Positions 6,973 through 64,000 of a DNA stretch of 64,000 nt are shown here, in pieces (position 1 is the stretch's first letter; each line of letters begins with the position of its first letter). The stretch is from an uncultured Acidobacteriota bacterium (GTDB lineage: Bacteria; Acidobacteriota; Vicinamibacteria; Vicinamibacterales; CAVVIG01), in the NCBI GenBank assembly GCA_963720005.1, contig CAVREM010000048.1, forward strand, positions 269,093 through 333,092, written 5' to 3'. Below the pieces are notes generated by a model. It was given only the letters and a program-made list of their open reading frames with translations. It did no database searches and was not told the DNA's origin. A program made the translations under genes and the position numbers.

Positions 6973-7116
6973 GCGACGAAAACGCGAGTCCAGTCAAGCC
7001 ACGAAAACACGAAACGAAGCTAGCCACGAAAACGCGAAAACACGAAAAACGCTTAATGAGATATGGTTGCTAGCCGTGTCTGGCGCATGAGCCATCTTCT
7101 TTTTGTGCTTCCGTGG
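6970..7116. repeat. inverted repeat built of CACGAAA(A) words
   Basis: The left arm (6970..7051) consists of CACGCGACGAAAA/CCACGAAAACACGAAA words. The right arm CTTCTTTTTGTGCTTCCGTGG lies at 7096..7116. The loop is about 45 nt. Confidence 0.75.
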
Positions 7117-7246: not shown

Positions 7247-7267
7247 CCGAGGGGCGAAGCCCCTCGG
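7247..7267. repeat. GC hairpin CCGAGGGGC-GAA-GCCCCTCGG, 8 nt upstream of the ATG at 7275
   Basis: Perfect 9-bp stem with the same GAA-type loop style as the other REP-like hairpins. Confidence 0.8.
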
Positions 7268-7274
7268 GTAACTA

Positions 7275-8844
7275 ATGCGTTACGACGCGATCGTCATCGG
7301 CGGCGGCCACAACGGCCTGACCGCGGCCGCGTACCTCGCGCGCGCCGGGCGCAAGGTGCTCGTGCTCGAACGGCGGCACGTGCTCGGCGGGGCGGCGGTC
7401 ACCGAGGAGGTGTTTCCCGGCTTCCACTTCTCGGTCTGCTCGTACGTCGTCTCGCTGCTGCGGCCCGAGATCATCCGCGACCTCGACCTGCCCCGGCACG
7501 GCCTCGAGATCCTGCCGCTCGACGGCACGTTCACGCCGATGGCGAACGGCGACCACCTGTGGCGCGTCAACGATCACGCGAAGACCCGGCGCGAGATCGC
7601 GCGTCACTCGCGGCTCGATGCCGAGGCGTACGACGAGTACGGCAAGGCGATGGTCGAGATGGCGCGGTTCGTCAAGCCGATCCTGAACATGACGCCGCCG
7701 GACCCACTGTCGCTGAACCCGCGCGATCTGGGCAAGCTCCTCTTCCTCGGCAAACGCTTTCGCTCCCTGGCAGCCCAGGATCGCCGCAACCAGCTCCAGC
7801 TGATGACGATGAGCGCCGTCGACTTTCTCGATCAGTGGTTCGAGACCGACGTGCTCAAGGCGACGATGTCTGCGTCGGGGATCATCGGCACGTTTCTCGG
7901 CGTGCGCTCGCCGGGGACGGCGTACGTCCTGCTCCACCACTACATGGGCGAGATTGACGGCGCGTTCCGCTCGTGGGGATTCTCACGCGGCGGCACCGGC
8001 GCGATCTCGAACGCGATCGCGGCTGCGGCGCGCGAGGCGGGGGCCGAGATCCGGACCAGCACGAGCGTCGCGCGCATCCGGTCGAGCAACGGTACGGCGA
8101 CCGGCGTCACGCTTGCGAACGGGGACGAGCTCGATGCCACGCTGGTCTTGTCGAGCGTCGATCCGCGGCTGACGTTCCTGAAACTGCTCGATCCGCGCGA
8201 TCTGCCGACCGAGTTCGTCGACGAGGTGCGGCGCTTCAAGTTCCGGGGCTCGTCGGGCAAGGTCAACCTCGCGCTCGACGCGCTGCCCAACTTCACGTCG
8301 CTGCCTGGCGCCGGGCCCCCATCTGCGCGGCGCCATCTCGATCTCTCCGAGCGTTGATCACATGGAGCGGGCGTACGACCAGGCGAAGTACGGCGCGTTC
8401 TCGACCCGGCCCTACATCGACATGGTGATTCCGACGCTCACCGATCCGTCGGTGGCGCCGCCAGGCAAGCACATCCTGTCCTGCTTCGTGCAATACGCGC
8501 CGTATGCGCTGGCGAACGGCACGTGGGACGAGCAGCGCGAGGCGTTTGGCGACGCCGTGATCGACACGCTCGCCGAGTTCGCGCCGAACATCCGCGACAT
8601 CATCCTGCACCGGCAGGTCCTGACCCCGCTGGACCTCGAACGCGAGTTCGGGCTGTCGGAGGGCAACATCTTCCAGGGCGAGCTGACGCTGGAGCAGCTG
8701 TTCTTCCTGCGCCCCGCCCCCGGTTGGGCGCAGTACACGACGCCGATCCGCAACCTGTGGATGTGCGGCTCGGGCGCGCATCCGGGTGGAGGGATCATGG
8801 GGGCGCCGGGGCGAAATGCGGCGCTCAAGATCCTGAACAAATGA
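7275..8844 (+). CDS. NAD(P)/FAD-dependent oxidoreductase, phytoene desaturase (CrtI/COG1233) family; frame break near 8325
   Basis: N-terminus is YDAIVIGGGHNGLTAAAYLARAGRKVLVLERR. ORFs 7275..8357 and 8362..8844 join as LPGAGP-HLRGAISISPSVDHMERAYDQAKYG once one C is removed from a CCCCC run. Confidence 0.8.
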
Positions 8845-9169: not shown

Positions 9170-9216
9170 CCGACGAACGACGAACGAGGAGCGTAGAACG
9201 CGAACGACGAACGACG
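9170..9216. repeat. GAACGAC-word array (right arm, inverted relative to 8859..8912)
   Basis: CGACGAACGACGAACGAGGAGCGTAGAACGCGAACGACGAACGACG. Confidence 0.8.
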
Positions 9217-12619: not shown

Positions 12620-12657
12620 GGGCATTAAACGTTCCGTCGCGGCGGCCGGTCTAACCC

Positions 12658-14312
12658 GTGGTGAGGCTGCTGATGCGGAGACCAGCCGTTTTCGTCCCAA
12701 TTCTCGTCGCCGCGCTCGCGGTGATGCCGTCCGCCGCGCCGTCGCCGGCCGACGACGCGTCAATCGTGCACGTGCTGAACCGGATCGGCTACGGCCCGCG
12801 CCCGGCCGACGTCGAGCGCGTGCGGCAACTGGGCATCCAGGCGTACATCGAGCAGCAGCTGCATCCCGAGCGTATCGCCGACGAAGGCATGCAAGCGCGT
12901 CTCGACAGGATGACGACGCTGACGCTCTCCACGAGCGAGCTGCTCGAACGGTACCAACAGCCGAACGTGCAGGCACGGCGGGCGCGTCAGCAGGCAGCGG
13001 CCAACAACCCGTCCGGAGCGCCGCCGGAACGGCCGATGCGCGACCCGAACATGCAGCCGCCGAACCTGCCGCTCGTGGAGTTGTCGGAGCAGAAACTGCT
13101 GCGCGCGATCTACAGCGATCGGCAGCTCGAGCAGGTGCTCACCGACTTCTGGTTCAACCACTTCAACGTCGACGCGCGCAAGGGTCCGGTGCGGATGATG
13201 CTCACCGAGTACGAGCGCGAGGCGATCCGCCCGCACGTGCTTGGCCGGTTCCGCGATCTCCTGGGCGCCACCGCCAAGAGCCCGGCAATGTTGTTCTACC
13301 TCGACAACTGGATGAGCTCGGATCCAAACGCGGAGCATGAACGCTCAGCGGCGCGCGCAGCGCAATCCTCTGCGCCCTCAGCGTCCTCAGCAACCTCAGC
13401 GTCCTCTTCCGCCGGCGCCGCCCGCGAACGCCCAACGGCGCGGGCTCAATGAGAATTATGCGCGCGAGCTGATGGAGCTGCACACGCTCGGCGTCGACGG
13501 GGGCTACACGCAGAAGGACGTCACCGAAGTGGCGCGCGCGTTCACCGGCTGGACGATCCGGAATCCGAGAGTGCGCGGCGACTTCATCTTCGAGTCGAGG
13601 ATCCACGACGACAAGGAGAAGGTCGTCCTCGGCCACAAGATTCGCGGCGGCGGCATGAAGGACGGCGAGCAGGTGCTCGACATTCTCGCCGAGCATCCGT
13701 CGACCGCCCGCTTCATCTCGACGAAGCTGGCGCGTCGGTTCGTCAGCGACACGCCGCCTTCCGCGCTGGTCGAGCGGATGTCGGCGCGGTTCACGGCCAC
13801 GCGCGGCGACCTGCGCGAAGTGCTGCGGACGCTGCTCACCTCGCCCGAGTTCCTCGCGCCGGCGTCTGTACTCGACCAAAACGAAAACGCCCTTCGAGTT
13901 CGTCGTCAGCGCCGTCCGGGCGACCGACGCGCCGCTGAACGACGCCCGCCCGCTCGTGCGATCGCTGCAGGACCTCGGGATGCCGTTGTATCAGTGCCAG
14001 CCGCCGACCGGTTACAAGGACACCGCGGACGCGTGGGTCAACACTGGAGCACTCGTCGGACGCATGAACTTCGCGCAGAGCCTTGCGAGCGCGCGGTCGT
14101 TCGGCGTTCGCTCGGATCGCGATCGTTCGACGTTCGACGCCTCGACGAACGCCCGAACGAAGAGCGCAGCGCCCGAACGACGAACGACAGAAGTCGATCC
14201 GCTCTTCGGCCTGACCGTCTCGGAGACGACGCGCTCGACGATCGCGCGGGCGACGACGCCGCAGCAGGCGCTGGCGCTGACGCTCGGCTCACCCGAATTC
14301 CAGAAACGGTGA
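12658..14312 (+). CDS. DUF1800 domain-containing protein; at least two frame breaks (between about 13330 and 13440, and about 13870)
   Basis: Family motifs VLNRIGYGPRP, LTDFWFNHFNV, LNENYARELMELHTLGVDGGY and YQCQPPTGY are spread over frames 12658.., 13337.. and 13956..14312. Confidence 0.8.
14097..14190. repeat. GTTCG/CGAAC-word inverted repeat inside the DUF1800 ORF
   Basis: GTCGTTCGGCGTTCGCTCGGATCGCGATCGTTCGACGTTCGAC ... GACGAACGCCCGAACGAAG..CCCGAACGACGAACGACAG. Translated in frame it reads SFGVRSDRDRSTFDASTNARTKSAAPERRTTE. Confidence 0.8.
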
Positions 14313-16711: not shown

Positions 16712-17121
16712 CTACTCCGGTTTTCTGGCGCGCACGTCGTCCAGCCGCAGCCGCGCCGCTTCGACGGCCTTGAGGCCGTCCTTCTGCATCTCGATCGGCG
16801 ACGGTCCTTCGGCCGGGTCCGTGAAGGCGCTGCCGGCGATCGTTCGATGATAGTCGCGTTCCGCTTCCTGAAGCGCGGCGAGCGCGTCATGTGCTCGCGC
16901 TGCCACTCGAGCCACCGGGTCAGCCGCGCGATGGCTTCGGCTTCCGTCGAGGCCGCGCACTCGATCCCGAAGCGGCTCCCGTCGTCCACACGTTCTGCCC
17001 ACGCAATCCAGTCAGCGCCCCCGAGAGAGCGTGCGAATTCGATGGCTCGCTTCGCCTGTCGTTCGTCGTTCGTCGTTCGAACGTTCGTCGGTTGTGGGTT
17101 CGTCCATGCGTTTGCCCTCAA
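16712..17121 (-). CDS. hypothetical protein; frame break near 16890; start uncertain
   Basis: ORF 16669..17121 (AKRAIEFARSLGGADWIAWAERVDDGSRFGIECAASTEAEAIARLTRWLEWQRE) continues in ORF 16712..17002 (DALAALQEAERDYHR...RARKPE). The stop lies 3 nt before the dehydratase ATG. Confidence 0.35.
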
Positions 17122-17163
17122 TCATCGCTTCGTCGAACGCCGAACGCGCGAACGCCGAACGGC
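17057..17163. repeat. GTCGTTC/GAACG-word inverted repeat
   Basis: The left arm is TGTCGTTCGTCGTTCGTCGTTCGAACGTTCGTCGG. The right arm is CGTCGAACGCCGAACGCGCGAACGCCGAACGGCAG. Confidence 0.8.
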
Positions 17164-29956: not shown

Positions 29957-31390
29957 ATGAACGGCGAGGCATTCCGGCGCCACGGGCATGCGCTCGTCGA
30001 CTGGATTGCCGATTACCTCGAGCACTCGGATCGCTATCCGGTTCTCGCCCGGGTCGAAACCGGGCGAGATCGCGGCCGCGCTGCCCACCCACGCACCCGA
30101 AGAGCCCGAACCGTTCGACGCCATCATGGCCGACGTCGAACGGATTCTCGTCCCCGGGCTGACGCACTGGAACCACCCGCGCTTCCTCGCGTACTTCGCC
30201 ATCAGCGGGAGCCCGCCCGGGGTGCTCGCCGAGTTTCTGTCGGCGGCGTTCAATCAGCAGGCGATGCTCTGGCGGACGTCGCCGGTGGCCACCGAGCTCG
30301 AATACGTCGCGCTCGCCTGGCTGCGCCGCCTCATTGGCCTGCCGGACGCCTTCGAGGGGGTCATCTACGACACGGCCTCGATCGCGACGCTCCACGCGCT
30401 GGCGGCGGCCAGGCATGCGGCGGTTCCCGGCGTCCGGCCTGAAGGGCTCGCGGGGCGTCCCGACGTCGGGCGGCTGGCCGTGTACTGTTCCGAGCAAGCG
30501 CACTCGTCGGTCGACAAGGCGGCCATCACGCTCGGCCTCGGCGATACGGCGCTTCGCAAGATCGCCGTTGACGACGAGTTCCGCATGCGCGCTCGATCGG
30601 CTCGACGAAGCGATCCGCCGACGATCGTGCAGCAGGTGTCCTTCCGGTCGCCGTCGTCGCAACCGTCGGCACGACGGCGACGACGAGCATCGATCCGGTG
30701 CCCGACATCGCCGCGATCTGTGAACGCGAACGAATCTGGCTTCACGTGGACGCGGCGTACGGCGGGGCGGCGGCGATGCTGCCGTCGCATGCTCACGTAC
30801 TCGATGGCGCGGCGCGGGCGGACTCGCTGGTCGTCAACCCTCACAAGTGGCTGTTCACGCCGTTCGATCTCAGCGCGTTCTACTGCCGCCGCATGGATCT
30901 GGTTCGATCGACGTTTTCGGTGATACCCGACTTCCTCCGCACTCCCGAGCCGGAAGCACGAAACCTGATGGACACCGGGATCCAGCTGGGCCGGCGCTTT
31001 CGCGCGCTCAAGCTCTGGATGGTCCTGCGATCGTACGGAGCGCGCGGGATACGAGAGCATCTGGACCGGCACTTGCACTTGGCTCGTCTGTTCGCGGCCT
31101 GGGTCGACGGCGACGCCGATTTCGAACGCGTCGCCCCGGTGCCGTTTTCCGTGGTCTGTTTCCGGTGGAATCCCGCCGGACGGAGGCTGTCCGACGCCGA
31201 CGCCGACGCGGCCAACGAGCGGCTGGTCGAGACGGTGAACAGGACAGGAGAGGTATTTCTTTCCCACACGCGGCTGCGCGGCCGTGTCGCGATCAGGATG
31301 GCGATCGGCCACCTGCGTACGCAAGAGGCGGACGTCCGCCGGGCGTGGGAACTCCTGACGGATCACGCCAGCAAAGGAGCCGACTCGTGA
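29957..31390 (+). CDS. pyridoxal-phosphate-dependent group II decarboxylase (aromatic-L-amino-acid decarboxylase-like); at least three +1 frame breaks
   Basis: Family motifs HWNHPRFLAYF, SEQAHSSVDKAA, LHVDAAYGG and NPHKW (PLP lysine) are spread over ORFs 29957.., 29988.., 30334.. and 30698..31390. Confidence 0.85.
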
Positions 31391-32663: not shown

Positions 32664-32737
32664 CAGTCGTCAGTCATCAGTCTCAGTCATCAGTGATCAG
32701 TCATCGAAGGACTGACGACTGTTGACTGTCGACTGTC
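32664..32737. repeat. inverted repeat of CAGTCAT/GACTG words
   Basis: Six tandem CAGTCNT heptamers are followed by GACTGACGACTGTTGACTGTCGACTGTC. It sits between the sixA start and the DUF1684 stop. Confidence 0.85.
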
Positions 32738-33618: not shown

Positions 33619-33699
33619 TCCTCTGCGCCTCTGCGCCTCTGCGTCCTCTGCTCCCTCAGCGTCCTCGTCTATTTCTCTCTGCGTCCTCGTCTACTTCTG
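33619..33699. repeat. CTCTGCG-word tandem array (single orientation)
   Basis: CCTCTGCGCCTCTGCGCCTCTGCGTCCTCTGCTCCCTCAGCGTCCTCG..CTCTCTGCGTCCTCG. Confidence 0.8.
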
Positions 33700-35412
33700 C
33701 AGCGAAGCTTCCCGTATGGCTTTGAACTCATTGCCCGGCTTCCACTCTGGAAACCTGTCGGCTTCGGCGACGCGGTAGCCGACGGCGAAGAATACCTTCA
33801 GGTCCTCGCGCGCGCCGCTCATGTCCCAGTCGGCCCGGACGATGTCGGACGGCTTGTGGTAGTGGTTCTCGGTGTAATCGTTGCGGACTTTCACCGAGTA
33901 CTCGGCGGCTTTCCGACGAAATCAACCCCTTCGTCGGGATCGAGCGCCGGCACGCCCTGCTTCGCGAAATTGAAGTGATCGGACCGGTAGTAGAACCCCT
34001 TTTCCGGTTCCGGATCGGGCCGGATCACCCTTCCCTGCTCGCCCGCCGCGTCGCGCACGTAGTCGTCGAGATCGGATGCGCCGAAGCCGACCAGCGTCAG
34101 GTCCGTCGTCCGCCCGTGGACGTTCAGCGTGTCGAGGTTGATGACAGCGGCGGTTTTGGCGAGCGGATAGATCGGCTGCACCGAGTAGTACTGCGACCCA
34201 AGAAGCCCCTGCTCTTCGGCGGTGACGGCCAGAAAAAGCACGGACCGCTTCGGCGGCGCCGTCAGCCTCGTGAAGGCGCGCGCGATCTCGACGATGCCGG
34301 CCGTGCCGACGGCATTGTCGACCGCGCCGTTGTAGATGCGATCGCCGTTCACCGCCGGTCCGACGCCGAGATGATCCCAGTGCGCCGTGTAGATCACGTA
34401 CTCGTTCTTGAGCTGCGGATCGCGGCCTTCGAGCTTCGCGACGACGTTCTGGGAGGCCATCGTGCGCAGCTTGTTGTTGAGGCGGATCGACGCGGTGAGA
34501 TTGAGCGGCACCGGCGTGAATTCCCTCGTCGCCGCCTGCTTCTTCAGCGTGTCGAAATCCTGGCCGGCCATCTTGAGGATCTCGCGGCCCTGATCGACGG
34601 TGATCCATCCCTCGATATCCGCGCGGCCCATGTTCTTGTCGGGCGTCACGAGATCCAGCTTCTCGCCCAGGTTGCCGCCCTGGAGCACCTCGAACGGATA
34701 GCCGGCCGGCTCGGTCTCGTGGATGATCAGCACGCCGGCGGCGCCTTTCTCGCGCGCCGATTTCGTACTTGTACGTCCAGCGGCCGTAGTAGGTCATGGC
34801 GCGACCGCCGAACGTCTTGGGATCGAGCTGCGAGGGGTTCGCCGGATCAGGCACCGGAGGATCGTTGACGAGCATCACGATCGTCTTGCCCTTGACGTCG
34901 ACGCCCTTGTAATCGTCCCACTCGAATTCAGGCGCGACGACGCCGTAACCGACGAACACCATCTCCGAGTTTTCGATCGCGGCGCTGTCGGCGACGTGCT
35001 TGGTCCAGGCGACCAGGTCGTCGCCCCATTTCAGCTGGCGCTCGGCACCCGAGGCGCTGCGGACGACGAGCGGCGCCCCGTCGGCCGTGATGCCGACGAG
35101 TGGGACCTTCTGCACGTAGCCGCCGTCGGCAGTTCCCGGCTTGAGGCCCGCCTTCTTGAACTGCTCGACCAGGTAATTGACCGTCGCCTCCTCGCCGTTG
35201 GTCCCCGGGGCGCGGCCCGCGAACTCATCGGAGGCCAGGACCTTCGTGTGGGCAAGCACCGCGTCGGCGTCGATGTCGGGCAGGTCGCCGATCGGCGTTC
35301 GTTGAACGGTCGGCGTCGGACCGGGAACCGTTCCAGCCGCAGGAGTGGATTCCGGCGACGAGCACCCGCCGAGCGCGAGGCACAGGGCGAGCCATGGGGC
35401 GATCTTCGACAT
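33691..35412 (-). CDS. M28 family aminopeptidase with PA domain (lipoprotein); two frame breaks (about 34735 and 33900)
   Basis: The lipobox is LALGGC. AHWDHLG, NGAVDNAVGTAGIVEIAR and AEEQGLLGS motifs are present. ORFs 33922..35412, 33891..34733 and 33691..33894 are collinear. Confidence 0.85.
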
Positions 35413-36490: not shown

Positions 36491-36576
36491 CAATTCAGAA
36501 TTTGGAATTAGGGATTTGGAATTCGTGGCCAGAACCCATCAGCATTCCAAATTCCAAATTCCAAATTCATAATTAC
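36491..36576. repeat. inverted repeat of GGAATTT/ATTCCAA heptamers
   Basis: The left arm is CAATTCAGAATTTGGAATTAGGGATTTGGAATTCG. The loop is 16 nt. The right arm is GCATTCCAAATTCCAAATTCCAAATTCATAATTAC. Confidence 0.9.
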
Positions 36577-37648: not shown

Positions 37649-37653
37649 ACAAG

Positions 37654-37765
37654 CCACGAAACCACGAAAACAATCAAGCCACGAAAGCACGAAAACACGA
37701 AAAGCAAAATTGGGTTTCGTGCTTTCGCGTTTTCGTGGCGTTTCTTCTGTTCCGTGTTTTCGTGG
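37654..37765. repeat. inverted repeat of CACGAAA(A) words between convergent genes
   Basis: The left arm is CCACGAAACCACGAAAACAATCAAGCCACGAAAGCACGAAAACACGAAAAG. The right arm is TTTCGTGCTTTCGCGTTTTCGTGGCG..TTCCGTGTTTTCGTGG. Confidence 0.9.
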
Positions 37766-38892: not shown

Positions 38893-38927
38893 AATCTTAA
38901 ATCTGAAATCTTAAATCTTAAATATCA
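38893..38927. repeat. tandem AATCTTA heptamer array
   Basis: AATCTTA AATCTGA AATCTTA AATCTTA AATATCA lies upstream of the ATG at 38942. Confidence 0.85.
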
Positions 38928-54106: not shown

Positions 54107-54821
54107 GTCCTGCGCGGACGACTCGCCAGATCACCACCCCGAACAGCAGCGCCACCGCCGAGAGCATCGAGGCAAACAGGATCAGCGTGCGGTAGAGAAT
54201 CGACCGCGGCTGCATCTGCACCTCGAGCTCGAGCGGCTGGCCCCGCAGTCGATCCTGCAGCGCCTGCTCCCAGACGACGATGTTCCCACGGCGCAGGTTG
54301 TCGGGACCGGCATTGTGGTACTCGACGACGCTCGGAACATGGATGCGGAAGGCGACGAGCTCGTCTCCGGTCCAGTCCGCGGTCCGGTCCTGGTGCGGTG
54401 AGGAGACTCCACCCGCCACGGTCTGCTTGTAGACCACGGTTTCGCCCGGCTGTGCGAGCGAATACGAGGACCACGAAAATGGGCCGGCGGCGCCGAGCGT
54501 TCGCACGTCATCAGTCTCGAGACGGACGTGGACGTATTGCCGGCCGAGACGGCGGGACGTGGTGACGCGCATGACCCGAGTGGAAGGGGTCGTGAAAAAC
54601 TGCCGGACCGCTTCGCGATCGATGCGCGCCGTCGGCCGCGTATCGAACGACGTCCCGCGGAGCGCATTCAAGGCAGCGATCGAACTGTTGACGTAAATCG
54701 TCGCGCTCCCGTCGAGCGACAGATACATCTCCTCTTCGTACTCGTACTGCCGGATGAAGCCGCCGCCGGTGGTGCATGCGGCGGCGGCGATCACGAGGAC
54801 GCAGAGGATGACGACTCGCAC
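54090..54821 (-). CDS. hypothetical lipoprotein with C-terminal transmembrane helix
   Basis: The GTG start gives MRVVILCVLVIAAAAC (lipobox). The C-terminal segment is LILFASMLSAVALLFGVVIW. The upstream part of ORF 54090..55850 is antisense to polA and was discarded. Confidence 0.55.
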   Translation of the reverse strand: MRVVILCVLVIAAAACTTGGGFIRQYEYEEEMYLSLDGSATIYVNSSIAALNALRGTSFDTRPTARIDREAVRQFFTTPSTRVMRVTTSRRLGRQYVHVRLETDDVRTLGAAGPFSWSSYSLAQPGETVVYKQTVAGGVSSPHQDRTADWTGDELVAFRIHVPSVVEYHNAGPDNLRRGNIVVWEQALQDRLRGQPLELEVQMQPRSILYRTLILFASMLSAVALLFGVVIWRVVRAGQKKGG

Positions 54822-54840
54822 AATTTCGGATGATATAGTA

Positions 54841-54922
54841 GAGGACGCAGAGGGAAGAGGCGCGCCGCTCTGCGCTCTGCGCTCTGCCCTCTGCGCTCTG
54901 CGTCCTCTGCTACCTCTGCGTC
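54841..54922. repeat. inverted repeat of GCAGAGG/CTCTGCG heptamers in the divergent promoter region abutting the polA start
   Basis: GAGGACGCAGAGGGAAGAGG is followed by CGCTCTGCGCTCTGCGCTCTGCCCTCTGCGCTCTGCGTCCTCTGCTACCTCTGCGTCC. The TTG start of polA is at 54924. Confidence 0.9.
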
Positions 54923-54923
54923 C

Positions 54924-57772
54924 TTGAAACCTGTTCTGTACCTCGTCGACGGCAGCTCGCAGATGTACCGCGCGTACCACGCGCCGATCAGAACGGCCGA
55001 AGGCACGCTGCTGCGCAATTCGCAGGGGATCCCGACCAACGCCGTCTACATCTTCGTCACGATGCTGCGGAAGCTGCTGAAAGAACAGCAGCCGGAGTAC
55101 ATCGCCGCCTCCTTCGACCTCCCGGGACGGACCTTCCGCGACGACATCGTGTCGGACTACAAGGCGAATCGCCGGCCGATGCCCGAGGAGCTGGCCGGAC
55201 AGATTCCGCTCGTGCACCGCGCGTGCGAAGCGCTTGGCGTGCCGATCCTCACGCACGAACGATATGAAGCGGACGACGTGATCGGGACGATGACCGAGCG
55301 GGCGGCGGCCGAAGGGTATCGCGTGGTGATCGTCACCGGCGACAAGGACTTCTTTCAGCTGGTGCGGGACGGCATCCGCGTCTACAACCCTCGCGACGAG
55401 GGTGCCTGGTACGACGCGGCCGGCGTCAAGGAGAAGTTCGGCGTCTCGCCCGATCAGGTCGTCGACGTGCTCGCGTTGATGGGCGACACGATCGACAACG
55501 TCAAGGGGGTGCCGGGCATCGGCGAGAAAGGCGCGCGCGATCTCATTGCGGTCCACGGGACGCTCGACGCCCTGCTCGACCGCGCCGCCGAAGTGCCGCA
55601 GAAGAAGTATCGCGAGGCGCTCCTCGCCCACGCCGCCGAGGCGCACCAGAGCCGGGAACTGCTGCGGATCCACACGAACGTCCCGGTCGAGTTCGACATC
55701 ACCGCCTTCCGCTATCGCGGACCGACGCGCGAAGCCTGCTACGAGCTCTTCTCGGAGCTCGGCTTCCGCTCGCTGGTGATGGAGTACGCGCCCACGGCCG
55801 ATACCACCGCCAAGGACTACCAGCTCGTCACCACGCTCGACGGCGTGCAAAAGGTCGCGGCCGAGCTCAAGTCGGCTGGCCGATTCGCGATGCGCGTCCT
55901 GCCCGACTCTCCCGCCGCGGTGCGTGCGGGCATCGTCGGCCTCGCGTTCTCAATCGCCCCGCGCCAGGCGTGGTACGTCCCGATCGGGCACGTCGAGCCG
56001 TCTCAACTGCCCGCCGCGGAATCCGGTGCCGACCCTGAAAGAGGTGCCGACCCTGAAAGGGTCGGCCTACCTGGCAACCTGTTCGACCTGCCGGCCGATG
56101 ACGTCTCGCGCCTTCACCCTCTGCGCCTCTGCGCTCTGCGTCCTCAGCTCCCTCTGCGTCCTCTACTCCCTCTGCAATCCTCGACGCATTCAAGTCCGTC
56201 CTGGAGGACCCGTCGGTCGAGAAGGTTGGGCATGACCTGAAGTTCGACATGATCGTCCTGGCGCGGCATGGCATCGCGCTCGCCGGCGTTGGCATGGACA
56301 CGATGCTGGCGAGCTACCTGCTCGACTCGACGCGAACCGGCCATCCGCTCGAACCCACCGCCCTCGAGCACCTGAGCTACAAGGCGCTCACGGAAGAGGA
56401 CGTCTGCGGCCGGGGCGCCAAGGCGGTGAGCCTGGCCCACGTCTCTCCCGAGGCTGCCCTGAATTACGCCGGCGAACGGTCCGATCTCGCGCTGCAGCTC
56501 GCCAACCGGTTGTCGCCGATGCTGACGACCGACGGGCTCGACGCGCTCGATAAGCTCTATCAGGACATCGAGCGGCCGCTCATCCCGGTCCTCGCGCGCA
56601 TGGAGCAGGCGGGCGTCCGCCTCGATGCGCGAGCGCTGGCGGCGCAGTCGACTCACATCGAGCGCGAGCTGGCCAGGCGCAGCGAGCAGATTTACGAGCT
56701 GGCCGGCGAGCCGTTCAATATCAACTCGCCGCCCCAGCTCTCGAAGATTCTGTTCGACAAGCTGCAGCTGCCGGCGCTCAAGCGCAACGTCAAGACGAAG
56801 ACGGCGTCCACCGCGGTCGAGGTGCTCGAGGAGCTCGCCCTCGCGCACGAACTGCCGCGGATGATCCTCGAATGGCGCGCGCTGCAGAAGCTGAAGGGCA
56901 CCTACATCGACGCGCTGCCGCAGCTCGTGAATCCGGAAACGGGCCGCGTGCACACCTGCTTCAACCAGGCGGGGGCCGCCACCGGGCGCTTGAGCAGCAG
57001 CGACCCGAACCTGCAGAACATCCCGATTCGCACCGAGCTCGGCCGTGAGATTCGCCGCGCCTTCATCGCCGATCCCGGCCACGTGCTGATCTCGGCCGAC
57101 TACTCGCAAATCGAGTTCAGGGTGCTGGCCCACCTGGCCGACGAGGACGTGCTGATTGAAGCGTTCCGGGGCGGCGCGGACTTTCACGAGCAGACGGCGC
57201 TGAGGCTGTTCGGCGAGAACAGCGGGCGCGATCCGCACCAGCTGCGGGCGACGGCGAAGATGGTCAACTACGCCGTGCTCTACGGCAAGACCGCGTTCAC
57301 GCTGGCGAAGGACATCAACGTCCCGACGCAGGCCGCGCAGGAATTCATCGACGCGTACTTTGCCGGGTTCCCGAGGGTGCGCGCCTTCATCGACCGAACG
57401 CTGGCCGACGCTCGCGTGTCCGGGTTCGTCCAGACGTTGTACGGACGCCGCCGCCTGGTACCGGAACTGAACAGCCGGAACGGGCAGATGCGGTCGGCCG
57501 CGGAGCGAGCCGCCACCAACCATCCGATTCAGGGGACCGCCGCCGACATCATGAAGCGCGCGATGATCGACGTCGATCGGGTGATCGCGGCGATGCGGGA
57601 CGTCCGGATGATCCTCACCGTGCACGACGAGCTGCTGTTCGAGGTGCCCCGCGGCCGGGCGGAGGATGTCGCCGCCGTCGTGCAGGACGCGATGCAGCAT
57701 GCGGCAGCGTTGAAGGTGCCGCTGATCGTCGACGTCGGGATTGGCGAAAACTGGAAGGACGCGAAGGACTAG
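54924..57772 (+). CDS. polA: DNA polymerase I; frame change (+2) inside a repeat-containing insertion at about 56035-56176
   Basis: The 5'-nuclease N-terminus is MKPVLYLVDGSSQMYRAYHA (ORF 54924..56240). The Klenow-like part has the DYSQIELRVLAHL, QVHDELLFE-type and NYAVLYG motifs (ORF 56249..57772; its frame is open from 56102). Confidence 0.9.
56035..56175. repeat. composite repeat insertion inside polA: two GCCGACCCTGAAAG(GGTCGGC) REP-like units plus a CTCTGCG-word array
   Basis: GGTGCCGACCCTGAAAGAGGTGCCGACCCTGAAAGGGTCGGC at 56035..56076. CCCTCTGCGCCTCTGCGCTCTGCGTCCTCAGCTCCCTCTGCGTCCTCTACTCCCTCTGC at 56117..56175. Confidence 0.85.
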
Positions 57773-57779
57773 CGTGCGC

Positions 57780-57800
57780 GGCGACCCTGAAAGGGTCGCC
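57780..57800. repeat. REP-like hairpin GGCGACCC-TGAAA-GGGTCGCC after the polA stop
   Basis: Perfect 8-bp stem. It is the same unit type as the copies inside polA at 56035..56076. Confidence 0.85.
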
Positions 57801-58607
57801 CTACTTCGCCCAGCGCTCCTTGAAGAGCTCCCACTCGTCGCGCAGGCGCTCTTCTGGCTGCGCCGTCGCCTTCGCGCGATCGGGGATGATCCCGCGAAGC
57901 ACGAGCTGATCGATATCCCCCCGCAGGTCCGCGTTCTCGTCCAGGCTGAGCCCGGCGCGGACCCAACCGGCGAGCGCCGCGTCCCAAGCGACCGTCAGGT
58001 CGCCCTGGCCCCGGGCGGCCGCCGCCAGCCAGTACGAAGCCGCCGTGCTCGACGGATTCGCACCGACTTCGACTTCCATGCGATCGAGGATCTTCTGGTA
58101 CATCGCCCGGCGCTCGATATCTGCCTGCCGCCGGGCATCTCGGTCGATCGCGCTCGCCCACCAGTCGAGCAGACCGTCGCGCGCCGCGGGTGTGAGAAAG
58201 TCGGGACCCGCCAGGACGGCCCCGAAGATGGCGGCGGCCGCGCCGGGCGTGCCGTCGAAGAAGAGGGTCTCACCGAGACCGATGACGTATTCCACGCGCT
58301 CCGTCGGACTGAATCCCGCGGTGTTCAGTTTCTTCAGACGGTCCCGCGCGTTCGTCAAGTCGTCCGAGGCGGCGCTCTCCCGATAGCGCTCGAGATACGC
58401 ACGGGCTGCAATCAGGTTCGCGCTGTCGGCGCGCGCCGGCGTCAAGGCGGCTTCCTCGGCCGCCGAAAGCGCGGCGCTGAACTGCCGCTCGTTGTACAGC
58501 ACCCGCGCCCGTTCGAGCGGGTCGCGCGACTGGGCGGCAACGACCTGCCCGGCCAGACAAAAGGCCAGCGCAAGAACCCCGAACGACGAACGGCTGAGGA
58601 CGCCCAT
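57801..58607 (-). CDS. secreted hypothetical helical-repeat protein
   Basis: Start chosen at MGVLSRSSFGVLALAFCLAGQVVAAQS. The body is Ala/Leu-rich and helical. The upstream part of ORF 57801..59198 is antisense to pcnB. Confidence 0.5.
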   Translation of the reverse strand: MGVLSRSSFGVLALAFCLAGQVVAAQSRDPLERARVLYNERQFSAALSAAEEAALTPARADSANLIAARAYLERYRESAASDDLTNARDRLKKLNTAGFSPTERVEYVIGLGETLFFDGTPGAAAAIFGAVLAGPDFLTPAARDGLLDWWASAIDRDARRQADIERRAMYQKILDRMEVEVGANPSSTAASYWLAAAARGQGDLTVAWDAALAGWVRAGLSLDENADLRGDIDQLVLRGIIPDRAKATAQPEERLRDEWELFKERWAK

Positions 58608-61750: not shown

Positions 61751-61850
61751 GTAATTAGGAATTATGGATTAGGAATTAGGAATGGTCGCGGGCACGCGCC
61801 CACTCCGCACCCATTTCGATTTCCTAATTCCTAATTCCAAATTCCTGATT
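61751..61850. repeat. inverted repeat of AATTAGG/CCTAATT heptamers
   Basis: The left arm is GTAATTAGGAATTATGGATTAGGAATTAGGAATGG. The loop is a 35-nt GC-rich sequence. The right arm is TTCCTAATTCCTAATTCCAAATTCCTGATT. Confidence 0.9.
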
Positions 61851-63117: not shown

Positions 63118-63157
63118 AGTGGCCCCTTGAATGACTGGTAGTTGATATCTAACGTGA

Positions 63158-63249
63158 CGAGGACGCAAGGAAGCAGAGGACGCAGAGCGCAGAGCGAGAC
63201 GCCTCGGCTACTCTGCGCTCTGCGTCACTCTGCTTCCTCTGCGTCCTCG
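63158..63249. repeat. inverted repeat of GCAGAGG/CTCTGCG heptamers
   Basis: The left arm is GAGGACGCAAGGAAGCAGAGGACGCAGAGCGCAGAGCGAGACGCC. The right arm is GGCTACTCTGCGCTCTGCGTCACTCTGCTTCCTCTGCGTCCTC. Confidence 0.9.
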
Positions 63250-64000
63250 ATTCGCGTTGCTTATGTCGTCGCGCGTCGCGCCCTGTCCGCGAATCGCGCG
63301 CTTCACCAGGTTGCGCATCAGCGGGATCTTGTAGCCGTTGTAGCGCAGCGGCTGCGCGCCCTGGATCGCCAGTTCGCCGGCCCGCGTCGCCGTCTCCTCG
63401 CTCCGCGGCTGCCCCGCAATCGCCTGCTCCACCGCCGTCAGCCGCAGCGGCCGCGCCGCCACCGCCCCCACCGCGATCCGCGCCGCCTGAATCGTGTTCC
63501 CCGACGTCTTGATCGCCGACGCCACGTTCACCAGCGGGAAGTCCCACACCTGCCGGTCCCGCACCTTCTCGAAGTAGAACTGCGCCCCGGCCCACGTCCC
63601 CGGGATCCGGATCGCCGTCAGCAGTTCGCCCGGCCGCAGCACCGTCATCCGCAGGATGTTGATGTCCGGCCCCACGAAATACTCTTCCGCCGACACCGTC
63701 CGCTCGCCGCCCAGGCTCCGGATCACCATCGACGCCTCCAGCGCGATCAGCGCCGGCGCCGTGTCCGACGGGCTCACCGCCACGCACCGGTCCGCCTGCA
63801 GAATCGCGTGCTCCCGGTTGATCGCCGTCGGCGTGTCCGCGTAGCAGATGTTCCCGCCCGCCCGGTAGCACGTCCACCCGCTCCGGTAATACCAGCAGCG
63901 CGTGTCCTGCGACACGTTCCCGCCCAGCGTCCCCTGGTTGCGAATCTGCGGCGAGGCGACCAGTTCCGCCGCTTCCATCAGCAGCCCGTAGCGCTCGCGC
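63208..64000 (-). CDS. xanthine dehydrogenase family FAD-binding subunit (CoxM-like); 5' end outside window
   Basis: SPQIRNQGTLGGNVSQ and the CO dehydrogenase flavoprotein C-terminal domain pattern are present. The last roughly 15 codons run into a heptamer repeat. Confidence 0.8.
   Translation of the reverse strand, partial: RERYGLLMEAAELVASPQIRNQGTLGGNVSQDTRCWYYRSGWTCYRAGGNICYADTPTAINREHAILQADRCVAVSPSDTAPALIALEASMVIRSLGGERTVSAEEYFVGPDINILRMTVLRPGELLTAIRIPGTWAGAQFYFEKVRDRQVWDFPLVNVASAIKTSGNTIQAARIAVGAVAARPLRLTAVEQAIAGQPRSEETATRAGELAIQGAQPLRYNGYKIPLMRNLVKRAIRGQGATRDDISNANRGRRGSRVTQSAE

Follow-up and report, generated by a model that had tools for sequence, protein, structure and literature searches.

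Intragenic repetitive extragenic palindromic (REP) sequences of the GTAG and CGTC types occur preferentially in genes for replication and repair, and the genes listed for them include DNA polymerase I (Di Nocera et al. 2013, PMC3733652). In that paper's account of these repeats, the GTAG/CTAC tag is a REP signature, and an example of a decorated DNA polymerase I is Rhodopseudomonas palustris RPE_4821, with a CGTC-3 dimer spanning residues 338-367. Rickettsia palindromic elements (RPEs), as outlined there and in a second report, measure ~100-150 bp, encode a conserved peptide and have a CGTC terminus (PMC3733652, PMC10969869). We describe a related arrangement in polA, the gene for DNA polymerase I (Pol I), of an uncultured Acidobacteriota soil bacterium (Vicinamibacterales; CAVVIG01), using a 64,000-nt stretch of contig CAVREM010000048.1 (hereafter the window; 65.6% GC). 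Inside this gene, a loop of the 3'-5' exonuclease-like domain carries small repeats, and the reading frame changes among them. We put the probability that the loop is inherited and repeat-colonised, and that the frame change is technical, at roughly three in four.

In outline, a permissive, disordered loop in a dead 3'-5' exonuclease-like domain would have been colonised by two dispersed small repeat families, a CTAC/GTAG-tagged REP hairpin and a single arm from a palindromic CT-rich array with 7-10-nt units. The insert is old, being common to relatives at ~84% or more protein identity and read there in frame as a Ser/Ala/Pro-rich linker, and its length shifts by unit gain and loss and by hairpin decay. 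The frame change would stem from an extra octamer where the array begins on its 5' side, or equivalently from the loss of one base there, and would most likely be an indel error made in an error-prone assembly.

The expanded polA loop and its repeats

The features of the locus, in window coordinates, are these.

54836..54924, + strand: palindromic copy of the array family, flanked by a GATGATATAGT motif that related contigs conserve and by the polA TTG start
54924..57772, + strand: polA (DNA polymerase I), TTG start at 54924; frame A to ~56125, then frame B to the stop
55992..56176, + strand: expanded loop of the exonuclease-like domain, from strand AWYVPIGH to helix ILDAFKSVLED; 185 nt, remainder 2 on division by three
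56025..56042, + strand: 18-nt partial tandem duplicate of the REP left half (GGTGCCGACCCTGAAAGA), in frame, encoding GADPER
56046..56070, + strand: REP hairpin GCCGACCC-TGAAA-GGGTCGGC with flush CTAC (GTAG on the other strand), translated ADPERVGL
56076..56105, + strand: native loop segment NLFDLPADDV; its (N/D)LF(D/G) motif is found in most expanded loops of the order, repeat-free ones included
56106..56176, + strand: one arm of the CT-rich array family, 95% identical to 54888-54924; units parsed against related loci L083, L163, L164, L017 and L001
56118..56133, + strand: two adjacent CCTCTGCG octamers, where L083, the closest in-frame ortholog, has one
57780..57804, + strand: REP copy GGCGACCC-TGAAA-GGGTCGCC with CTAC, in the 28 nt that separate polA from the convergent gene

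The loop is bounded by AWYVPIGH, ending at 55991, and ILDAFK, from 56177 on. Aligned to E. coli Klenow, 60 query residues stand in place of 11 (chain residues 66-76), and R-V-L occupies the positions of the ExoI residues D-T-E, from which we infer that the domain is an inactive exonuclease fold. An earlier note on this DNA had counted about 60 extra codons; that figure suits the loop as a whole (~62 codons), the excess being ~49 relative to the 13-residue basal loop of more distant relatives or the 11 residues of E. coli Klenow. The note had also asked whether modelling would place the insert in a surface loop. AlphaFold2 models residues 346-392 of the intact ortholog P0010 as coil with no secondary structure (pLDDT ~30), flanked by a strand (335-340) and a helix (394-406) with pLDDT 93-97. 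The insert is thus predicted to be a disordered surface loop between a confident strand and a confident helix.

Two REP-like units, the second a full hairpin, had been noticed in the loop, and our analysis resolves them into a half-unit duplicate and a tagged palindrome. The hairpin proper, GCCGACCCTGAAAGGGTCGGC (56046-56066), has a perfect 9-bp stem followed by CTAC at 56067-56070, and it folds at -28.6 kcal/mol (z-score -4.5). Tandem Repeats Finder reported the duplication at 56025-56059 with period 18, 1.9 copies and a 100% match; the 18-nt duplicate is missing from L083. The hairpin recurs just after the polA stop, as had been claimed: GGCGACCCTGAAAGGGTCGCC occupies 57780-57800 with CTAC flush at 57801-57804, where the CTA forms the TAG stop codon of the convergent, minus-strand gene, and this copy folds at -20.5 kcal/mol (z-score -2.9). 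Over a 28-nt stretch the sites at 56046 and 57780 are 89% identical, and their two differences are complementary, preserving the stem. Both hairpins have a 9-bp stem and a 3-5-nt loop. The pattern they define has 3 matches in the 64 kb against 0.02 expected by chance, and a scan for perfect hairpins found 10 with CTAC or GTAG adjoining the stem, 9 of them flush, in four sequence types (at 507, 991, 1059, 4044, 4071, 21880, 25090, 56046 and 57780). The polA-loop REP sequence also lies at non-polA positions in L083, L086 and L105. As a short GC-rich palindrome with a stable stem-loop and a GTAG/CTAC end tag, at 56046 and 57780 alike, the polA-loop element (SCGACCCTRAAAGGGTCGS plus CTAC) is, on structural grounds, a REP.

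The second family supplies the 3' part of the loop. Its units read TCGCGC CTTCAC CCTCTGCG CCTCTGCG CTCTGCG TCCTCAGC TCCCTCTGCG TCCTCTAC TCCCTCTGCA. The array of about eight CTCTGCG heptamers described earlier is there, not as pure heptamers but as 4 exact and ~5 degenerate units of 7-10 nt. The same array had been reported just before the polA start, and indeed 56126-56162 matches 54888-54924, directly upstream of the start, at 95% identity over 37 nt. In the upstream copy, arms 54836-54860 and 54888-54912 are 88% complementary, and 54832-54926 folds at -50.8 kcal/mol (z-score -4.65). This palindromic copy is present in the window, L017, L001, L163, L165 and L083, and absent from L162, L164 and L086. 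The family is not confined to the flanks of polA; members lie at 13366-13406, 33619-33698, 54836, 56106 and 63159-63248, and the copy at 63150-63255 folds at -81.7 kcal/mol (z-score -11.9). Intergenic members consist of two inverted arms that form long hairpins; the polA copy is a single arm, unstructured by itself (-11.3 kcal/mol, z-score -1.0).

Vertical inheritance, the one-armed, unstructured array and the commonness of Ser/Ala/Pro linkers could also be accounted for by a low-complexity linker of the ordinary, lineage-specific sort, formed in place, with its likeness to repeats convergent or spread outward from polA. We consider this very improbable in view of the 37 nt shared at 95% identity with the array copy in the 5' untranslated region, the family CTAC tag and the compensatory stem variant of the REP. 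Both array arms, moreover, form the variable loop of DUF1800 orthologs (RTQREQRTQR...PQRPLPP), and REPs are read through in a methyltransferase-like open reading frame (ORF) at 755-1225 as well.

Like the REP-decorated proteins catalogued by Di Nocera et al., the polA loop holds a short GC-rich GTAG/CTAC palindrome of a dispersed family, in frame in a replication/repair gene, and the post-stop copy in its 28-nt convergent spacer occupies a location typical of REPs, which that paper describes as lying mostly near gene 3' ends (PMC3733652). The polA case differs in phylum, Acidobacteriota being absent from the phyla named for GTAG repeats in the relevant passage of that paper. It differs further in adding a second repeat family and in being conserved clade-wide at the genus level, not strain-specific. 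With RPEs it shares selfish palindromic DNA in frame in a housekeeping gene, translated within a fold-compatible surface loop (PMC10969869): orthologs read the insert in frame, and the loop is disordered in the model. The palindrome of 21-25 nt, the GTAG-type tag and the free-living soil host set it apart from the size, encoded peptide and CGTC terminus of RPEs. The polA REP is not an RPE, though it behaves like one, and the earlier analogy to the in-frame elements of Rickettsia was apt; the insert is dispersed repeat DNA, in frame, in the variable loop that the note had named. We infer that the insert is tolerated passenger DNA akin to intragenic REPs and RPEs, with no demonstrated function of its own, neutral and spread in the manner of such elements. 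In-frame REPs and RPEs being already established, what this case adds is the host phylum, the co-occurring periodic palindromic repeat family, and clade-wide conservation with variation in unit number. As a clear case of small repeats riding, in translated form, within a core replication/repair enzyme of a little-studied soil phylum, the locus extends what has been published on REP-decorated repair proteins.

Conservation of the insert among relatives

We measured loop lengths by anchoring tblastn on the conserved peptides flanking the loop in 164 related loci; an earlier extraction by regular expression had reached 39 loci and missed the REPs. A metagenome scan for relatives yielded two close ones, L083 and L086. 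Orthologs of the window's polA carry the names Vicinamibacterales or Acidobacteriota. The 120 best homologs span 847-969 residues, most commonly 896-899, and intact Vicinamibacterales orthologs span 896-969 residues at 84-88% identity to the window polA.

The basal loop is 39 nt (13 residues) in 109 of the 164 loci, with graded expansions up to 183 nt, giving a series across relatives from 13 to ~62 residues. The CTCTGCG array is confined to the closest clade (~84-88% protein identity), where its translation is in every case (S)APLRSASSAPSA(SSS), with the polA array in orthologs translated (S)APLRSASSAPSASS. In most cases ADPxRVGL (the translated REP) and NLFDLPDDD come ahead of it, for an overall reading of ...ADPxRVGL..NLFDLPDDDASAPLRSASSAPSA... 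Eight related contigs that stay in frame have the array in this loop, and most of them keep the REP or a remnant of it (in-frame carriers: L083, L086, L162, L163, L164, L165 and L017; at the protein level, P0001-P0013). Near-perfect REPs with CTAC occur in L083 and L086, and decayed versions in L162, L163, L164 and L001. In L002, from a more distant relative, this loop contains a tandem pair of REPs that belong to a different sequence type.

Alignment with the nearest polA genes thus finds the insert to be lineage-specific, in frame in orthologs and variable in length. The residues in those orthologs are encoded by the same repeat DNA, contrary to a scenario raised in the earlier note in which they would be ordinary conserved protein without similarity to the repeats. 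The note had also allowed for a misassembly, and each of the two pieces does find its best match within 1.7 kb, one at either end of polA, as expected had intergenic repeat DNA been spliced into the gene by a repeat-driven error. The same composite nevertheless stands at the same codon position, in frame, in independent assemblies from other samples and projects; the array is in the same place in all eight in-frame contigs, four of which bear names typical of short-read assemblers (k141_, Scaff, Ga...), and polA is collinear on both sides of the insert. Misassembly of the whole insert therefore has almost no probability. The polA insert is inherited, translated and evolving, and not a misassembly.

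We also rejected the idea that a tandem duplication of polA left the insert behind as a junction of 3' and 5' flanks: its parts stand in the wrong order for this, and both families occur elsewhere. In L001 (5009-5275), another palindrome is nested in the loop of the polA REP (GCCGACCCTGA[CCGCCTCCGCCAAGGCTACGGCGGTCCGCCGAAGC...]GGGGTCGGC), a repeat-in-repeat insertion within the coding loop whose details are uncertain in this error-prone contig.

Origin of the frame change

As stated in the earlier note, the upstream frame stays open to 56240 and the downstream frame is open from 56102. Frame A (remainder 0) is open over 54924-56240 and frame B (remainder 2) from 56102 to the stop at 57772, a +2/-1 change with a 139-nt overlap (56102-56240). 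Pfam places 5_3_exonuc_N and 5_3_exonuc within 54924-56237, in the frame A part, and DNA_pol_A_exo1, DNA_polI_exo1 and DNA_pol_A (profile 3-381 of 381, complete) within 56102-57769; the frame B part thus contributes the latter half of the exonuclease-like domain along with an entire family-A polymerase domain. This Klenow-like part is otherwise undamaged, with 556 open codons, a GC content at third codon positions (GC3) of 0.89 and the full DNA_pol_A match. The frame A tail reads ...LRLCALRPQLPLRP...

We compared the distance from the LFD codons to the ILD codon among relatives.

Window: 101 nt, remainder 2
L083: 87 nt, remainder 0
L163: 81 nt, remainder 0
L164: 96 nt, remainder 0
L017: 87 nt, remainder 0
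L162: 69 nt, remainder 0
L165: 69 nt, remainder 0
L086: 81 nt, remainder 0
L001: 79 nt, remainder 1; three octamers

Compared by units, the window differs from L083 in having an added TCGCGC (6 nt) and one further CCTCTGCG (8 nt), and it is this extra 8-nt unit that produces the +2 change relative to L083. With one octamer removed, the window reads DDVSRLHPLRSASSAPSASSTPSAILDAF, matching DPDVLTPLRSASSAPSASSTPPAFLDAL in L083; inserting one base near 56107 or 56119 likewise restores the frame. The change falls within the array, as the note had deduced, and more exactly at its 5' end. The corrected gene would read ...DDVSRLHPLRSASSAPSA... across the loop, and its product in this organism is most probably a single, full-length Pol I with ~946-949 residues.

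The polA frame change is not the only one in the window. We searched for frameshifts using stop-to-stop segments with high GC3 and Pfam matches on neighbouring segments, a sliding GC3-phase plot having proved too noisy, and found at least four other conserved genes to be frame-broken.

7272-8841: amine-oxidase/phytoene-desaturase-like gene, broken at a C5 run (8316-8320) and rejoined by removing one C
12655-14309, + strand: PF08811 (DUF1800) gene in three frames, profile splits at 153/154 and 294/295, frameshifts near 13336 and 13870
29961-31387: PF00282 pyridoxal phosphate (PLP)-dependent decarboxylase, broken at ~30606-30620, two frames, profile split 186/191
33891-35412: M28 peptidase, apparently split over two overlapping frames near 34740

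The decarboxylase also passes from remainder 0 to remainder 2 (29961-30920 to 30572-31387), and polA therefore does not hold the only +2 change seen, as had been thought. These four further broken genes indicate an error-prone assembly. Among the 164 related loci, only L001 is frame-broken in the polA loop; L001 and L166, a fragmentary relative, come from assemblies with contig_N names and have polA itself or its neighbours in pieces. Given the other broken genes, the lone L001 among 164, the undecayed Klenow-like part and the lack of an early start or a slippery site, the polA frame change is most likely an assembly or sequencing indel error. Coding arrays would then be places where genes break in long-read assemblies, and pseudogenes should not be called there without read support.

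Several observations weigh against this account. The change amounts to a whole 8-nt unit, unlike the 1-nt homopolymer indel at 8316-8320, and L001 too differs by whole units (two), as real slipped-strand mispairing would yield. Frameshifts occur in the window about once every 10 kb, a rate at which chance alone is unlikely to place one within a 70-nt array, and the array must therefore be either specially error-prone or truly variable. The genome covered is 64 kb, moreover, and the copy numbers of both REP and array are minimal estimates.

A real frameshift would result if slipped-strand gain of an octamer truncated Pol I after the 5'-nuclease, leaving a recent pseudogene or a reversible on/off switch. 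The 7- and 8-nt units do shift the frame when gained or lost, the window and L001 have one and two units more than in-frame orthologs, and the 5'-nuclease domains are intact in frame A. In E. coli, the 5'-nuclease part of polA is enough for viability under many conditions. We nonetheless regard a real frameshift as unlikely: the window contains the other broken genes, L001 and L166 are riddled with frameshifts, every in-frame ortholog examined is divisible by three across the LFD-ILD stretch, and the 556 downstream codons show no decay. A search with the out-of-frame tail for recurrent truncated polA products returned one match, on a heavily fragmented contig.

The earlier note had suggested that, if real, the change would split the gene into a 5'-nuclease fragment and a Klenow-like fragment. 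This proposal finds no support in the eight array-carrying orthologous contigs, which read one frame, and is countered by the additional broken genes. A naturally split Pol I would have a complete downstream domain with its own start codon; in frame B there is no ATG, GTG or TTG before 56249, which lies past the helix ILDAFKSVLED and the motif HDLKFD. A split or frameshifted polA would matter if true; the evidence points to assembly error.

The array also invites comparison with slipped-strand contingency loci (phase-variable simple sequence repeats in ORFs): here too, tandem units of a length not divisible by three lie within an ORF, the number of units varies by contig, and two contigs read out of frame. 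The differences are that polA encodes a core replication/repair enzyme and not a surface or restriction-modification function, that its units are few and imperfect, and that the out-of-frame state is confined to error-prone assemblies (those of the window, of L001 and of L166, each with other broken genes), the eight in-frame contigs being divisible by three. We think it highly unlikely that the CCTCTGCG/CTCTGCG tract is a real slippage-prone switch, toggled by unit gain or loss, between full-length Pol I and a 5'-nuclease-only product, with subpopulations lacking the Pol I polymerase. Were it true, there would be a functional aspect to the repeat colonisation of repair-gene loops that Di Nocera et al. 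described.

The 139-nt overlap of open frames, finally, could permit full-length Pol I to be restored by programmed -1 ribosomal frameshifting or transcriptional slippage. Reading 56100-56135 by eye, we found no slippery site for programmed frameshifting, neither an X XXY YYZ heptamer nor a long A/T run. The array is unstructured and hence offers no stimulatory hairpin, and orthologs need no recoding. Recoding is exceedingly improbable, and an indel error in an inherited, repeat-bearing loop remains our preferred reading.

Coding and intergenic repeats elsewhere in the window

The CT-rich array has entered coding sequence in two further genes. In the DUF1800 gene, the copy at 13366-13406 is a translated, length-variable loop at Pfam profile positions 153/154, read NPLRPQRPQQPQRPLPP in the window; orthologs translate both inverted arms, and the loop ranges from 11 to 57 residues among the closer ones. 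We rejected the idea that the first DUF1800 frameshift lies inside this array, since comparison with P0122 puts the break ~30 nt upstream. Beside polA, the signal peptide of a divergent lipoprotein-like gene (54770-54822, - strand) contains an array unit, with ILCVLV encoded by ATCCTCTGCGTCCTC. The same signal peptide has more array units in orthologs (MRASGLCALRLCAL in L163 and VRAFRLCGLRVLCVLV in L164), and because the unit number differs there, the array is variable in a third coding region as well. Periodic CT-rich palindromic arrays can thus become coding, as in polA, the DUF1800 gene and the neighbouring signal peptide.

REPs, too, are read through outside polA. Two putative methyltransferase/restriction-like ORFs (3-548 and 755-1225, + strand; assigned by eye) translate them, giving ADLKVRT from the REP at 507-524 and NVRLKPDATKPDATK from REPs and 15-nt repeats at 991-1046, which suggests that this genome may hold more REP-decorated coding sequence. 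Inverted REP pairs (991-1010 and 1059-1078) resemble those of REPIN/RAYT systems; no RAYT gene was seen in the 64 kb, though no search aimed at one was made.

Other arrays of 7-9-nt units, unrelated in sequence, lie at 32664-32737, 36498-36574, 61753-61850, 17058-17161 and 14124-14188, and further ones at 7000-7048, 37650-37706, 9171-9216 and 38893-38923. Such arrays often comprise two that face each other in inverted orientation: (CAGTCAT)x6 / (GACTGTC)x4, GAATTTG / ATTCCAA and AATTAGG / TTCCTAA. They may reflect a tendency of the whole genome towards periodic palindromic repeats that recall the short tandemly repeated repetitive (STRR) heptamers of cyanobacteria. STRR heptamers resemble the CT-rich family of the polA locus as short tandem heptanucleotide arrays, intergenic and in a free-living bacterium. 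The CT-rich arrays differ in having two inverted arms that form hairpins of -50 to -82 kcal/mol, and in that translation extends to some of their copies.

In the spacer after polA, the repeat differs by species. The window has the GACCCTGAAAGGGTC REP, L164 an inverted GGACACAAA array, and L017 and L162 a CCGAGGGGCG.AGCCCCTCGG hairpin that also occurs in the window at 7247-7267. This pattern indicates that small repeats at fixed intergenic sites probably turn over rapidly.

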